Source: Candidatus Krumholzibacteriota bacterium
GTDB taxonomy: Bacteria > Krumholzibacteriota > Krumholzibacteriia > JAJRXK01
Reading direction: 5' to 3'
Length of the DNA: 64,000 nucleotides
Assembly: GCA_963727455.1 (NCBI GenBank)
Contig: CAVSGG010000008.1
Span: 1-64,000, forward strand
The notes below the pieces were generated by a model that saw only the letters and a program-made list of their open reading frames with translations, made no database searches and had not been told where the DNA came from. Positions 42,468 through 46,932 of this stretch are shown here, piece after piece. Within the stretch, counting starts at the first letter, position 1. Each line of letters starts with the position of its first letter. The translations under genes and the position numbers were made by a program.

Positions 42468-43481
42468 CTAGCCCGCTCGAAAGCACACGGGAAGACCCTC
42501 TCCCCGCGCAAGAACGCGTCCGATGGGCATGGGGGGCTCGCGCAACTCCGCGGCAATCCGCGAGGAAATCTCCTCACAAATCACGACCATCCCCAAGCCC
42601 AGGTTGAAGACCCGCCGCATCTCTTCGACTTCGATTCGACCTCGCTCTTGGAGCAATCGGAAGATGGGAGGGATCTGCCAAGAGCCCGCGTCGATTTGGA
42701 CCGCCAGCCCTTCCGGGAGAACTCGGGGAATGTTGTCGACGAGACCGCCTCCGGTGATGTGAGCCAGCGCTGCGATCGACTGATGCGCACGCAGCTCCAT
42801 CACTTGTGACAGATAGCTGCGATGCACCGCGAGAAGCGCATCGGCGAGCGAGCATCCCAGCCCTCCAGGATCCTCGTCCAAAGGAAGCCTGGATTCGCCC
42901 TCGAGCAGGACTTTGCGCGCCAGACTGAATCCATTCGTGTGCAGGCCGCTGGAAGGCCAGGCGTACACCTTCATTCCCTCTCTCACCGACGCGCCGCTGA
43001 TGAGGTCGTTTTCCTCCACTCTCCCCACGATACAGCCGGCCAGGTCGAAGTCCTCACCGTGATACACCCCGGGCATCTCCGCCGTCTCTCCCCCGATCAG
43101 CGCGCAGCCGTTTTCACGGCAGGCCTTGGCGAGCCCCTCCACCACCGCGACAAAGGTCTCTTCGCTCAGACTACCGGTCCCGTAATAGTCCAGGAAGAAG
43201 AGCGGCGTGGCCCCCTGAACCAGGATGTCGTTGACGCAGTGGTTCACCAGGTCCTCGCCGACTCCGCCTGGCTGCTGGGCCGCGAGGGCGATTTTCAGCT
43301 TGGTACCCACTCCGTCGATGGAGGAAACGAGCAGGGATCCGTCGGGCTGCCGATAGAGGCCCCCGAAAGATCCCACCTCCGATGCCACGGCAGGGCCCCA
43401 GGTGGAGCGTATGGCGGCACGGGAAGAGGCGAGCGCTTGGCTGGCGGCGTCGATATCGACCCCGGATTCGCGGTATTTCAT
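42468..43481 (-). CDS. purM: Phosphoribosylformylglycinamidine cyclo-ligase (AIR synthase)
   Basis: YRESGVDID, DGVGTK, GGETAEMPG, SSGLHTNGFS and AHITGGG motifs. Confidence 0.98.
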   Translation of the reverse strand: MKYRESGVDIDAASQALASSRAAIRSTWGPAVASEVGSFGGLYRQPDGSLLVSSIDGVGTKLKIALAAQQPGGVGEDLVNHCVNDILVQGATPLFFLDYYGTGSLSEETFVAVVEGLAKACRENGCALIGGETAEMPGVYHGEDFDLAGCIVGRVEENDLISGASVREGMKVYAWPSSGLHTNGFSLARKVLLEGESRLPLDEDPGGLGCSLADALLAVHRSYLSQVMELRAHQSIAALAHITGGGLVDNIPRVLPEGLAVQIDAGSWQIPPIFRLLQERGRIEVEEMRRVFNLGLGMVVICEEISSRIAAELREPPMPIGRVLARGEGLPVCFRAG

Positions 43482-43487
43482 GGCGGC

Positions 43488-43516
43488 ATGCTAGGGCGAG
43501 GCGGCTGTCCTGTCAA
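43488..43516 (-). promoter_or_regulatory. Putative leaderless sigma70 promoter of purM
   Basis: TTGACA-17 nt-TAGCAT, then 6 nt, then ATG; no SD present. Confidence 0.65.
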
Positions 43517-43556
43517 AGAGAGGCATGGCGGCGGTCGGAGAGCCTCGCGACCGGCT

Positions 43557-44909
43557 CTAGCCCACCGGCAGGCCGACGGGAAGCTCGGCCTCGCGCGTGG
43601 CAGCGTCGTGCAGAATTCTCTGGATCTCCAGGGCGGTACCGTCTGCCTGAGCGATCACCTTGAAGCTGCCGTCGGCGTACATCGACTCGATTGCATCGAC
43701 CACGTCCTCGGCGAACTGGCTCCCCTTGAAGCGGCGCAACTCCTCCATGCACTGCTCGAGCGAGAGCGCAGCCCGGTAGGGACGGTTGGAGGTCATGGCG
43801 TCAATTGCGTCGCAACAGTTGAGGATGCGGCTGCCCAGTTTGACCTCGTCGTCGCGTAGACCGTCGGGATAGCCCAGGCCATCCGGACGCTCGTGGTGAT
43901 GACGCACCAAGTCCGCCGCGCCCTTGAGGAACTTCATTTGAGAGACAATTTCGCCCCCGATCGCGGGATGGGAAGCGAGGATGTCGAACTCGTCCTTGGT
44001 CAGGCGCGCCGGTTTGCAGACGATGTCGTTGGTGATGGCGATCTTGCCTATGTCGTGCAGCAGTCCGGCGTACTCGAGCTCCTCGAGTTCCTCCGGCCCC
44101 ATTCCCATCCGCTGACCGATCTGCACTGCGTACTTCGCCACGCGATAGCTGTGCCCGTGCGTGTAGGGCTCGTCCGCTTCCAGGGCGGTGGTGAGCGCGG
44201 CCACGGTGTTGATGTGCGCTTCCTTCATTTCCTCGAAGAGCTTGTGGCTCTGCCAGATGATGAACAGCGGCAATCCAAAGAGCAGCAGCGACCAGAGTCC
44301 CGCGTACTCGTAGGAGAAGATGAGGAAAGCGCTCAGGGGTGCGGTGAGCAGGCCACTCAAAAAGTGCCAGGCGTAGTCGCCGCGCCAAACTTGATTCCAG
44401 GTCCGCCCTTCATTCAGGACGAGAACCGTGCTGGTGAGCGTCATGTTGACGCCAGAGAAAACCATGTGTGCCACGAGCGCGGGAATGAGGAACAGCGGCG
44501 AGGAGAGACTATCGACGCTGCTCCAGGGCAAGCTATGAAAAACGATGCCGGCCACTCCAACGGAGAAAGTCATCATCGCGATGTTGAAGATGACCTTCAA
44601 CGGAGAGCGACGCTTGATCAAGCCATCGCCCACCAGCAAACTCGCGCCTTCCATAAGCATCGCGGCAGCCGGACCGAGGGTTGCGATCACCGCAATGTCC
44701 ACGGTGGAGGAGGCCAGCCAGTCTCCGCCTGCTGAGGTCTTGACCTCGAAGAAATCGACTCCGATCAAGAACACACTGAAGCAGAGGATCGGAAGCCACT
44801 GAAGTGGTGAGATGGGGTAACGCTGAAATACCCACCAGCCCAACGCGTACGCCGCTACGGTGAGGACAAGAACGTAGAGAATTGCGATTGGTTTGCGGCG
44901 TATGAGCAT
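43557..44909 (-). CDS. Multi-TM membrane sensor fused to an HD-GYP cyclic-dinucleotide phosphodiesterase
   Basis: About 7-8 hydrophobic segments in the first ~220 aa; YTHGHSYRV, LLHDIGK, HHERPDGLGYPDGL and DAIDAMTSNRPYR motifs. Confidence 0.92.
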   Translation of the reverse strand: MLIRRKPIAILYVLVLTVAAYALGWWVFQRYPISPLQWLPILCFSVFLIGVDFFEVKTSAGGDWLASSTVDIAVIATLGPAAAMLMEGASLLVGDGLIKRRSPLKVIFNIAMMTFSVGVAGIVFHSLPWSSVDSLSSPLFLIPALVAHMVFSGVNMTLTSTVLVLNEGRTWNQVWRGDYAWHFLSGLLTAPLSAFLIFSYEYAGLWSLLLFGLPLFIIWQSHKLFEEMKEAHINTVAALTTALEADEPYTHGHSYRVAKYAVQIGQRMGMGPEELEELEYAGLLHDIGKIAITNDIVCKPARLTKDEFDILASHPAIGGEIVSQMKFLKGAADLVRHHHERPDGLGYPDGLRDDEVKLGSRILNCCDAIDAMTSNRPYRAALSLEQCMEELRRFKGSQFAEDVVDAIESMYADGSFKVIAQADGTALEIQRILHDAATREAELPVGLPVG

Positions 44910-44938
44910 TTGACCAAGGCCGGTTGAGAAGAGTTAGA

Positions 44939-44974
44939 CTACCACTTCACCTTACTACCGAGGACCCAGAACAT
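44939..44974 (-). CDS. Unannotated 11-aa small ORF MFWVLGSKVKW
   Basis: ATG TTC TGG GTC CTC GGT AGT AAG GTG AAG TGG TAG, preceded by SD GAGGTG (44980-44985) at 5-nt spacing; the stop is 29 nt before the HD-GYP ATG. Confidence 0.6.
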   Translation of the reverse strand: MFWVLGSKVKW

Positions 44975-45137
44975 TTTCCCACCTCACATCGGATTGGATT
45001 TGCCGCCATGCTCCGCTAGGGGGCGGCAGTGAGGCTTCGCTACGCGCTCGGGAATATGTGCTCCGCTCGGGGTTTCTCTGCAGACAACTCCCCTCAACCG
45101 GCCAAAAAGAGACCACGACACAAGTCGCGACTTGCCA

Positions 45138-45887
45138 TCAGGCCGAGGCGGCCCGCCACGAGATCTGCTCGAGGGTGGCGTCCTCGTCCTGTACCATCAA
45201 GTCCTGAAACTCCGCTTTGCCCAGAGGCCGATTCAGAGCATCAAGACAGGCGTAAACCGTTGATTCATAAAGAGATCCATTGTCCCAGCAGGTACCGGCC
45301 AGGCGCTGGATCTGGCGATTTGCGCCGAAATCCAGCACTACGATGACCAGGGACCCGCCGGCCAGTGAGGCCACTCGGGTGGTCCTCAATTGGATCTCAT
45401 ACTGGGGTTTCAGCAAGTTGCGCACCGCTTGGACCGCCGCCTGGGCCACCAGAGCCACGCAGGCGTCTGCGCCCAGAGCCGGGCCTTCCGAGCGGCCAGG
45501 CAGGCCCTCGAAAGCGCCCAGACTCAACTCGACCTCGGCGACGAAATTTCCGCCGCTGGTGGTGGAGTGAACTGCGGCCAGACGGATCCGTGGCTGCGAG
45601 CGCGACGGGGGCCGGCTCACGGTCGACTGGTTTGAGGGGAGGGGGGAAGTGTGCGAGGAATTGAGCTGAACCACGCCGATCTTGCGATGATCCACCTGAA
45701 CACCGTGGCGACGGAGCACCGCTTCGACATCGCGCACGATGGGACGGGGAGGACGCTGGGTATCGCTCAAAACGTCGATCTGTTCGATTTCATGCTGAGC
45801 GTCCAGAATCACGGAGGCGTAGCTGACGTTGCGAATCCTCGAGAGCTCGCGCTCCACCTCCATCACTTTCTTCGAATCGAGACTCAT
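45138..45887 (-). CDS. Hypothetical two-domain protein (C-terminal part resembles the LeuA allosteric/dimerisation fold)
   Basis: N-domain IVRDVEAVL..VDHRKIGVVQ; Pro/Ser linker; C-domain ending VYACLDALNR; SD AGGTG before ATG 45887. Confidence 0.7.
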   Translation of the reverse strand: MSLDSKKVMEVERELSRIRNVSYASVILDAQHEIEQIDVLSDTQRPPRPIVRDVEAVLRRHGVQVDHRKIGVVQLNSSHTSPLPSNQSTVSRPPSRSQPRIRLAAVHSTTSGGNFVAEVELSLGAFEGLPGRSEGPALGADACVALVAQAAVQAVRNLLKPQYEIQLRTTRVASLAGGSLVIVVLDFGANRQIQRLAGTCWDNGSLYESTVYACLDALNRPLGKAEFQDLMVQDEDATLEQISWRAASA

Positions 45888-46020
45888 GGATCCACCTGAG
45901 TTCTTTCTGCCCATTCCGCTGCTCCGGCGGGATTCGTCGCGCTACGACTGTAGCACACGGCTTGATCCGCCACCAAGGAAGAAACAGACTAAGCCATGAA
46001 ATGACAAAAGATTGAAGGGT

Positions 46021-46932
46021 TTACTTCGGCCAGGCCACGAGCTGGCGCAGCTCCTCGCGTCTCTGATTCACTGCGGCCGGCCTTAGATTTTCCAGGCCGC
46101 GGACGCTGAAGTCCTCTGCGGCGAAGCTCGCGAGCACCGTACCCTCGATCATGGCCTCGCGCAGGAGATCGTGATCCAGCTTCTCGCGACCGGCCAGATG
46201 GCCCAGAAAGCCACCGGCAAAGGTGTCCCCTGCACCGGTCGGGTCCTTGACGCGGTCCAACACCACCGCCGGCAAAGCGAAGCGCTGCGCGCCGTCGAAG
46301 AGGAGAGCTCCGTGCTCTCCCTTCTTGACGACCACTCGCTCGGGTCCCATGGCCTGAATCACCCGCACCGATTCGACCAGGGAGTGCTTTCCGCTCAACA
46401 GGCGCACTTCCTCGTCGTTGAGAAAGACGAGATCGGAGCGCTCGAGCACTTTGACCAGCTCCTCGCGCGAGGATTCGATCCACAGATTCATGGTGTCCAC
46501 CGCCACCAGTCGCGGGCTCTTGACCTGCTCGAGAACTTCCAGCTGCAGAGAGGGGTGGATGTTGGCGAGGAAGAGAAGTTCGGGATCCCGGAAGCTCCAA
46601 GGGAGAACGGGATGGAAGTGCTCGAAGACGTTCAAGTGGGTGAAGAGAGTGTCACGCCGATTCATGTCCTCGTGATAGCGCCCTCCCCAACGGAAACACT
46701 CCCCCTTCTCCACTTGGAGTCCGCTAGTGTCGATCTCCTTGCTCGACAGGAGATCACGGGCACTCTGGGGAAGGTCCTCTCCCACCACAGCGACCAGTCC
46801 CACCTGCGCATTGCGCGCGGCGGCGAGCGAGAAAAACGTGGCGCTCCCGCCCAGGGCGTTTTCTGCCTTTCCCCAGCGAGTCTCCACCGAGTCCAAGGCT
46901 ACCGAGCCCACTACGACGATCTGCATGAGCAT
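46021..46932 (-). CDS. PfkB-family carbohydrate/nucleoside kinase
   Basis: GSVALD, GGSATF, NDEE and DPTGAGDTFAGG motifs. Confidence 0.93.
   Translation of the reverse strand: MLMQIVVVGSVALDSVETRWGKAENALGGSATFFSLAAARNAQVGLVAVVGEDLPQSARDLLSSKEIDTSGLQVEKGECFRWGGRYHEDMNRRDTLFTHLNVFEHFHPVLPWSFRDPELLFLANIHPSLQLEVLEQVKSPRLVAVDTMNLWIESSREELVKVLERSDLVFLNDEEVRLLSGKHSLVESVRVIQAMGPERVVVKKGEHGALLFDGAQRFALPAVVLDRVKDPTGAGDTFAGGFLGHLAGREKLDHDLLREAMIEGTVLASFAAEDFSVRGLENLRPAAVNQRREELRQLVAWPK

Follow-up and report, generated by a model that had tools for sequence, protein, structure and literature searches.

A conserved Trp-ending micro-ORF in a structured leader: candidate leader-peptide control of a predicted MASE9-HD-GYP phosphodiesterase gene

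What does an open reading frame (ORF) of 11 codons do between the genes of two full-sized proteins? This question is raised by a stretch of DNA from a Candidatus Krumholzibacteriota bacterium (contig CAVSGG010000008.1, positions 1 to 64,000), referred to as the window, meaning the whole 64,000 nucleotides (nt) analysed. On its minus strand, a gene for a hypothetical protein (hyp), a micro-ORF encoding MFWVLGSKVKW and a gene for a membrane protein with an HD-GYP domain follow each other. An initial annotation had proposed them as a candidate signalling module in which the peptide is either a ligand or subunit of the transmembrane (TM) sensor, or a Trp-sensitive leader peptide. The coordinates that it gave for the three units were confirmed, every one on the minus strand (Table 1).

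The answer that we favour, with about even confidence, is that the 228-nt spacer between the two genes is a structured regulatory leader and that the 11-codon ORF encodes a cis-acting leader or arrest-type peptide. The ribosome translating it would open a long-range helix (P1) and so permit expression of the HD-GYP gene. This answer starts from what was observed: the ORF, its conservation, a covarying RNA structure around it, the geometry of the two and the single-copy occurrence at the locus.

The micro-ORF and its conservation

Twenty-four distinct nucleotide versions of the micro-ORF, 11–20 codons long, were found in the Krumholzibacteriia families f1, f2 and f6 (f1, the window's own, f2, f6 and f4 are locus families named among the relatives; L-numbers denote individual loci). 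All 24 sat between orthologues of hyp and of the HD-GYP gene, all ended in TGG-stop and all had a strong Shine-Dalgarno sequence (SD) 5–9 nt upstream. This recurrence at the same place far exceeds chance. The check proposed in the initial annotation, a search for a conserved SD with a short W-ending ORF upstream of HD-GYP orthologues, was positive with these 24 versions.

In f1, the ORF was found at the same place in every locus, ended in TGG-stop and was preceded by GTGAGGTG; in the window, GTGAGGTGGG immediately precedes its ATG. The f1 peptides were MFWVLGSKVKW, MFWVLGSKIRW, MFWVLGSKIKW, ..WLLGSKIKW, ..FALMSKIKW, MRWLMSVMLAGHIKW, ..LFRLLGKIRW, MRFLEMLLQAINLGGKVYW, MTFLEMMLDFFSLAG[VI]IKW, MTFMEMLFDAVNMGTKIKW and MTFVQMLLDLVNLGIKIRW. 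The f2 peptides (14 codons) were MLDFILGLFWKWEW, MLHWLLGFLSK[WF]EW, MLDYLLGLFFKWEW, MLYYIMGLFYKWEW and MLDWLWVLFSKWEW. The f6 peptides (19–20 codons, after AAGGAGGTG) were MWFIILDWFFGDVDTKVWW, MWFIFLSWFFEEVDTKVWW, MFKLIIDLFFGDLLLTKTWW and MFKFIFDLLFGDLLLTKTWW. Metagenome-assembled genomes labelled Eisenbacteria had a related ORF of 20 codons in this position, in four versions (MWELLLDLLSLVFEGKSGWM and three variants of it), and a more distant form, MIALWIAAIY.VLNGGRAGW, was also found. Comparison of these forms indicates that the window's genus keeps only the C-terminal 11 residues of an ancestral form of 19–20 residues.

Lys stood three residues ahead of the terminal Trp in 21 of the 24 versions and adjoined it in the remaining three. 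Trp accounted for 2 of the 11 residues in the window; in f2 and f6, its share rose to as much as 4 of 14 or 4 of 19. The stops were TAG in 16 versions, TAA in 8 and TGA in none (n=24, hand tally); among the window's 45 long ORFs, TGA closes 29. The small ORF singled out initially, with its SD and its terminal Trp, proved to be conserved: its length changed in frame, its residue replacements were conservative and third codon positions carried most of the substitutions. Differences at codon positions 1/2/3 were 4/0/7 between L021 and L024 (5 synonymous and 3 conservative codons) and 2/2/6 between L013 and L015. The peptides of the window's own genus matched that of L004 at 9 of 11 residues, with 57% identity in hyp and 73% in the HD-GYP protein.

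A fusion of the micro-ORF with the HD-GYP protein by readthrough or frameshifting was ruled out: the frame relation varies, with stop-to-start distances of 29 (exactly the value in the window), 33, 32, 63 and 49 nt. One genome (G030) had two copies of the leader, micro-ORF and HD-GYP start (L011 on contig 8, L199 on contig 19). They differ at one peptide position (Trp/Phe) and in the stop (TAA/TAG), and might be due to a duplication or to two strains in the bin. In L009 and L034, which represent the same genome region, the micro-ORF runs into a stretch of N (masked or an assembly gap) that also takes away the 5' part of the HD-GYP gene.

The leader RNA and its closing helix

RNAalifold was run on an alignment of eight f1 spacers and predicted three helices: the long-range P1, an anti-SD:SD helix (GCCUCAC with GUGAGGU) and an apical hairpin (Table 1). 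On this alignment, 91% of cells pair. The covariation score was 0.280 versus 0.166 ± 0.019 in shuffled alignments (0 of 500 reached it), and slid partners scored 0.11 at most. Seven of the 11 P1 pairs were changed on both sides.

Table 1. Positions of the genes and leader elements at the hyp/HD-GYP locus of the window
Feature	Position	Strand	Remarks
hyp	45887-45138	minus	249-residue ORF; in-frame ATG also at 45914 (258 residues); AGGTGG SD before the 45887 ATG
Spacer hyp to HD-GYP gene		minus	228 nt; contains the micro-ORF
Terminator-like hairpin with U-run	45103-45131	minus	stem 45131-45112, tail CTCTTTTTGG; directly past hyp stop, just before P1 5' strand
P1 5' strand (GGCCGGTTGAGGGGAGTTG)	45085-45103	minus	19-bp ungapped helix with 44918-44936; reached by 0/200 shuffles; RNAalifold agrees
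AGCGRAGC repeats (three)	45060-45067, 45034-45041, 45010-45017	minus	within 45010-45067
Leader core, match of covariance model R1	44972-45067	minus	99.9 bits, E 5e-23; sole match in the genome
Anti-SD GCCUCAC	45029-45035	minus	pairs with SD 44981-44987; 97% of cells paired; almost invariant in f1
Apical hairpin UGCCGCC/GGCGGCA, loop AGCGGAG	45001-45028	minus	one pair C-G to U-A in 6/12 sequences
Micro-ORF SD (GTGAGGT)	44981-44987	minus	kept in 10/12 aligned f1 rows; other 2 rows cut ahead of the SD
Micro-ORF MFWVLGSKVKW-TAG	44974-44939	minus	ATG TTC TGG GTC CTC GGT AGT AAG GTG AAG TGG TAG; orthologous ORFs in relatives
P1 3' strand	44918-44936	minus	begins 2 nt past micro-ORF stop, ends 8 nt ahead of HD-GYP ATG
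MASE9 + HD-GYP membrane phosphodiesterase gene (predicted)	44909-43557	minus	450-residue ORF; no SD before ATG

P1 was assessed by counts of ungapped stems, as duplexfold energies (cognate versus non-cognate strands) were too noisy in GC-rich RNA. Ungapped stems of 12–20 bp with lineage-specific sequences were found in 12 of 16 representative leaders, and in 9 of the 16, none of 200 shuffles reached the observed stem. The relatives rebuild P1 from other sequences, e.g. AATGCCAGCGGGGAG, TGGGGGTCGATCTGT, CTGGGGCCGGCCGGAAGGAA and GCCGACGCGGTGA. The 3' strand of the duplex starts no more than 8 nt past the ORF stop in 12 of 14 leaders, and the duplex extends to 0–12 nt from the HD-GYP start. This start has no SD in f1 (no GGAG, GAGG or AGGA upstream); in f6, its GGAG lies inside the extended helix. 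In f2, a run of T6–T7 comes right after P1 (L012, L200, L201), and the HD-GYP start is some 100–190 nt further. The conserved feature is the Trp-stop end set against the start-masking helix or, in f2, against a terminator-like element, not the length of the peptide or most of its sequence.

Minimum free energy (MFE) folds of 17 leaders gave a single long nested hairpin. It pairs the SD and also the initial ORF codons, the latter with an upstream AGCGGAGC repeat. SD partners of the CCUCC/GGAGG type were seen by eye in f6 and f2. The f1 core was almost invariant (AGCGRAGC repeats, CCUCACUGCCG and CGGCAAAUCC), its unpaired nucleotides included, although the flanking proteins are only 43–60% identical across f1. 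Three of the window's 10 AGCGRAGC matches fall within 58 nt, and the window total equals the number expected by chance. Related tandem repeats were found by eye ahead of the ORF in f2, f6 and Eisenbacteria-labelled leaders. In L021, L024, L039, L048 and L081, tandem AGCGAAGCGA / AGCGGAGCGG, 17–20 nt apart, precede the micro-ORF. The terminator-like hairpin after hyp recurs in the alignment of genus-level relatives; it may either end hyp transcripts or belong to the leader.

The R1 core was searched in 151 genomes of the class. Fifteen matched, with one match each: 10 of 10 in f1 (own genome included) and 5 of 43 in f2. No match was found outside f1 and f2 among these 151 genomes; the f6 leaders are too different for a model built on f1. 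Rfam 15, including c-di-GMP-I and -II, gave no match at E≤1 in 43000-46500 on either strand. Control by CsrA was ruled out: the best PF02599 match in the genome (89% complete) had 19.8 bits, below the cut-off of 27, and lay in a 701-residue frame.

The leader sequence was also present in RNA libraries, with DNA carry-over possible. Four metatranscriptome runs from four studies gave contigs of 159–227 nt on 44921-45092. As the contigs were only 95–99% or ~89% alike, they come from relatives; they give no strand, ends or level. In these runs (X1, X3, X4 and X5), no contig lay on the coding parts of hyp or the HD-GYP gene at 88% likeness or more, an absence that is uninformative. The contigs of X3, X4 and X5 all finish at 44921-44923 and have no loose end there; at best, this faintly suggests an RNA 3' end within P1. 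The X1 contig (159 nt) covers exactly 44950-45092 and is flanked on both sides by 8-mers that resemble Illumina adapter ends; it may represent one 143-nt insert.

The two proteins and their spread

The product of the downstream gene is a predicted cyclic di-GMP (c-di-GMP) phosphodiesterase of MASE9-HD-GYP architecture, with the HD and GYP motifs intact. Pfam matches of the 450-residue protein were HD_5 (1e-30), HD and MASE9 (3.5e-9); MASE9 (PF20972) covers residues 60–208 with 37.3 bits against a cut-off of 24.3. H285, D286, H338, H339, E340, G346, Y347 and P348 were invariant in 24 orthologues.

For hyp, no Pfam family (E≤0.01) and no NCBIfam family was found, and its sequence relatives formed 96 clusters, all unnamed or 'hypothetical'. 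An AlphaFold2 model from 26 orthologues had a mean predicted local distance difference test (pLDDT) score of 82. In VIA-align, residues 99–223 of the model matched 3f6g_B (citramalate synthase) with a Z of 9.2 and a root-mean-square deviation of 2.9 (108 of 115 residues). The C-domain also matched 3fig_A (LeuA) with a Z of 8.2 (Foldseek LeuA: E 2e-4), and an Atlas cluster bears the same automatic name as the LeuA-type match. Judged by the model, the C-domain has the fold of the LeuA/citramalate-synthase allosteric domains, which are isoleucine- or leucine-binding regulatory domains. Residues 1–77 are modelled with a ferredoxin-like fold, a common one that matches many unrelated families with a Z of ~8. 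Hyp is predicted to be a conserved two-domain cytoplasmic protein. Hyp and the full-length HD-GYP protein were also modelled as a complex; this prediction, run without controls, scored 0.00 and bears neither way on binding.

The two genes were closely linked in both directions of search. The HD-GYP protein was searched in 41 genomes of the class, giving 30 orthologous loci; in 27 of them, tblastn placed a hyp homologue immediately ahead of the HD-GYP gene and in the same orientation. Of the three misses, L010 and L011 are cut by a contig end and L027 shows the hyp C-terminal motif by eye. The reverse search with a 10-row hyp alignment gave 80 genome and 80 metagenome loci, 24 of the 160 being too short downstream. 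The HD-GYP protein, its N-terminal membrane part included, was matched directly downstream on the same strand in 117 of the 136 evaluable loci. The three units are a conserved co-oriented set in this respect, as had been supposed initially. Among the 19 unmatched loci, at least seven bear an ORF that by eye combines a membrane part and an HD-GYP-like part (L034, L080, L131, L133, L134, L151 and L165); the remaining ones have unrelated downstream genes, e.g. a ProS-like ORF on Coprothermobacterota-labelled contigs.

Some neighbouring genes recur in other arrangements. In L078, L082 and L183 (Coprothermobacterota label), an ORF that looks like a prolyl-tRNA synthetase by eye replaces the HD-GYP gene after hyp. 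In L079 (Eisenbacteria label), a PurM-like ORF directly follows hyp and the HD-GYP gene is absent there. In the window, purM (42468-43481, minus) comes after the HD-GYP gene, with a promoter-like TTGACA-17-TAGCAT (43488-43516, minus) between them.

The contig labels of the hyp loci included Krumholzibacteriota, Eisenbacteria, Latescibacterota, Chitinivibrionia, Caldisericota and others. According to the initial annotation, other phyla too have hyp-like proteins and short G....W peptides encoded next to membrane HD-GYP genes. This holds in part: the proteins do so under several labels, and the peptides were found as far as the Eisenbacteria-labelled loci. A midpoint-rooted tree was built from 79 distinct HD-GYP orthologues. 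The ORF-bearing Krumholzibacteriia loci formed one clade, with a single member without the ORF (L019), and the Eisenbacteria-labelled loci formed a basal clade. About 60 other orthologues on the tree had no micro-ORF, and in many of these loci, hyp and the HD-GYP gene are 1–16 nt apart or overlap. The ORF is therefore old yet dispensable for the protein pair. As so many orthologous loci have the two genes abutting without it, the peptide is not an obligatory subunit.

Three f4 loci (L014, L016 and L030) have no micro-ORF. Their conserved spacer bears TTGGCAT-N5-CTGCA followed by GGAGGGG; the first element is similar to the consensus of sigma-54 promoters. In these relatives, regulation at this position would then work by other means.

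Possible roles of the leader and comparison with known systems

Leader-peptide control would proceed as follows. In the absence of a ribosome, the leader would fold as one long nested hairpin, with the micro-ORF SD held by the anti-SD, and P1 would join the leader's 5' end to the 29 nt that separate the ORF stop from the SD-less HD-GYP ATG. The apical core would decide whether the micro-ORF is translated at all. A ribosome translating it would reach the Trp-stop end, which abuts P1, and would linger there through the conserved C-terminal residues or the Trp codon, keeping P1 open. The HD-GYP start would then be accessible for de novo initiation or re-initiation. In f2, the P1-type helix followed by a U-run would act as a transcription attenuator. 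We infer each of these elements, i.e. the opening of P1 by ribosome occupancy, the pausing at Trp-stop, the direction of regulation and the signal, from the layout described above.

A masked ribosome binding site (RBS) of the micro-ORF and a Trp-stop set against P1 are the anatomy of leader-peptide control. The locus has a conserved co-oriented ORF with its own RBS, and a terminator or masked RBS is present as output. The conserved C-terminal residues of an arrest peptide are there too (Trp in 24 of 24, Lys nearby), and the avoidance of TGA stops, together with the terminal Trp and the Lys close to it, suggests that the nascent peptide tunes how long the ribosome dwells at termination. Of the two options in the initial annotation, the leader peptide is much the better fit, given that covarying RNA surrounds the ORF and that the closing helix starts 2 nt past its stop. 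The ligand or subunit option gained no direct support and was weakened, as most orthologous hyp/HD-GYP pairs are without the ORF.

Several points weigh against leader-peptide control. With a footprint of the usual size, a ribosome standing on the stop codon would shield no more than the initial third to half of the 19-bp P1. Covariation was counted on the alignment from which the structure was derived, which favours the structure. Ungapped P1 is weak in L005, L114 and L015 (reached by 22, 33 and 175 of 200 shuffles, respectively); bulged duplexes were predicted for them nonetheless. The core helices (anti-SD:SD and apical) are nearly invariant in f1, with 1 of 14 pairs covarying, meaning that they are backed mainly by conservation and by comparison across families by eye. 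Within the genus, the ORF is conserved at synonymous sites as well, and part of the apparent peptide conservation may be due to constraint on the RNA. Finally, the 19–20-residue forms are conserved into their N-terminal half (MTF.EM..D, LLLD). This exceeds what simple leader peptides show and also fits a functional product.

Such a product could be a hydrophobic micropeptide acting in trans as a ligand or small subunit of MASE9 or hyp, the leader setting only dose and coupling. We regard this as unlikely, if the least unlikely of the rival explanations; a cis role may coexist with it. It would agree with the conservation of the long forms over their whole length and across two phylum labels, with the amphipathic character and acidic stripe of the 19–20-residue forms and with the strict linkage of the ORF to hyp and MASE9-HD-GYP. 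The authors who described MASE9 infer in-membrane ligand binding from charged residues in the TM core (bioRxiv 10.1101/2021.11.05.467447), and hyp has, by its model, an allosteric fold of the amino-acid-binding type. However, the ORF is absent from most orthologous pairs, and in the window's genus, the peptide has 11 residues, has lost the acidic N-half and is too short for a membrane span. The adjacent genes encode a PfkB kinase, ArgS and PurM, none of them an exporter, protease or maturase, and a free peptide would not need the one invariant feature, the position of Trp-stop relative to P1. A type I toxin-like hydrophobic peptide, with its mRNA silenced by long-range 5'–3' pairing, is very improbable. 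Its hydrophobicity, its 11–20 residues, the sequestered SD and the long-range closing helix would suit this explanation, and the leader may resemble mRNAs of the hok/Ibs type. Type I systems have an antisense RNA gene and are often multi-copy or mobile, but this element occurs once per genome, in strict synteny, and has been inherited vertically within an operon over family-to-phylum distances; no antisense gene was seen, although no search aimed at one was made.

A simpler alternative is a classical sensor of Trp supply, which we place behind the trans-acting peptide and consider distinctly unlikely. When charged tRNA-Trp is scarce, the ribosome would stall at the hungry UGG beside P1 and turn the HD-GYP gene on or off, and the sequence of the peptide would be irrelevant. 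The last sense codon is indeed UGG in 24 of 24 versions, Trp is strongly enriched and Trp-codon leader peptides that control downstream translation are known, e.g. B. subtilis rtpLP. The avoidance of TGA in the micro-ORFs would also agree, as this codon can be read by tRNA-Trp; read-through of this kind is described for PepNL (PMC11890864). Yet several f1 forms have one Trp codon only (L007, L008, L114–L117), other residues are kept as well (Lys three before Trp in 21 of 24, Gly, the LD.F block) and the HD-GYP phosphodiesterase gene has no link to Trp metabolism. Alternatively, the invariant core (AGCGRAGC repeats, CCUCACUGCCG, CGGCAAAUCC) could be an aptamer or a platform for a protein, possibly hyp, which frees or locks the SD, with the ORF as a coupling device constrained by pairing only. 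We find this more doubtful still. Unpaired core nucleotides are invariant across f1 despite the divergence of the flanking proteins, the three repeats in 58 nt stand against roughly chance density elsewhere and recur in f2, f6 and Eisenbacteria-labelled leaders, and the 5' codons of the ORF pair with a repeat in the MFE folds. On the other hand, Rfam gave no match at E≤1 and no CsrA was found above cut-off in the 89%-complete genome, hyp also occurs where the leader is absent, and pairing alone leaves Trp-stop, the TAG/TAA-only stops and the third-position bias unexplained.

Leader-peptide control remains the preferred reading, and a wider version of it is possible rather than probable. The micro-ORF might represent a new family of sensory ribosome-arrest peptides that, together with the AGCGRAGC core and perhaps with hyp, reads a metabolite (Trp, indole or another amino-acid signal) and sets phosphodiesterase synthesis. 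The released peptide might also bind MASE9 or hyp, and the whole might be an ancient nutrient-to-c-di-GMP relay common to Krumholzibacteriota and Eisenbacteria. If leader-peptide control is true, the locus is a compact candidate for a new peptide of the ribosome-arrest or attenuation type, with deep conservation. It is amenable to E. coli extracts, so that culture of the organism is unnecessary, and it would open a first way into the function of MASE9-HD-GYP proteins and of the hyp family, which has no annotation.

Among known systems, PepNL (14 residues long and arresting ribosomes at the stop codon, PMC11890864) and TnaC come closest in kind. They share with the micro-ORF a very short upstream ORF, a conserved C-terminal part and a terminating ribosome whose position decides downstream expression. 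The identity of the stop codon matters in PepNL (PMC11890864), and the micro-ORFs here avoid TGA. Unlike PepNL and TnaC, the micro-ORF precedes a c-di-GMP phosphodiesterase gene and lies inside a ~190-nt nested hairpin with its own SD sequestered; stalling would apply here by analogy. TnaC ends in Pro, whereas the micro-ORF peptides end in Trp.

Classical leader-peptide attenuation and translational attenuation are represented by trpL, rtpLP, ermCL and mgtL. The leader of the window shares with them an ORF combined with alternative RNA pairing. The U-run of f2 resembles an attenuator terminator, and the helix of f1 and f6 masks the downstream start as in translational attenuation of the erm type. 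Unlike in these attenuators, a single invariant regulatory codon is placed last, the peptide is conserved beyond this codon and the closing helix is long-range. The short hydrophobic peptide pheromones of Rgg/SHP and ComS/XIP resemble the micro-ORF product in small size, hydrophobicity, Trp near the C-terminus and an adjoining sensor gene. Unlike them, the micro-ORF has no Rgg/RNPP receptor, exporter or processing gene nearby, its host is not a Firmicute, most orthologous loci do not have it, and it forms part of a cis-regulatory structure.

Enzymes of c-di-GMP turnover are known to be regulated via transcription, sensor domains and riboswitch-controlled effectors. Full-text literature searches found no report of a leader peptide before an HD-GYP gene, nor any account of the peptide family, its leader structure, the link to hyp or the occurrence in these phyla. 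The MASE9-HD-GYP architecture of Galperin and Chou is the same as that of the window's downstream gene; their passages on MASE9 cover the domain only and mention no linked hyp, leader RNA or micro-ORF (bioRxiv 10.1101/2021.11.05.467447). For hyp, the nearest known structure is the allosteric domain of LeuA/citramalate synthase, on which its modelled C-domain superposes. Unlike these enzymes, hyp is predicted to be a stand-alone protein with a ferredoxin-like N-domain, without a catalytic domain or a Pfam-level match. Hence, leader- or arrest-peptide control as a kind is known; what is new is the peptide family, the long-range closing helix with its repeat-bearing core, the MASE9-HD-GYP target, the linkage to a hyp of LeuA-type fold and the occurrence in two candidate phyla.

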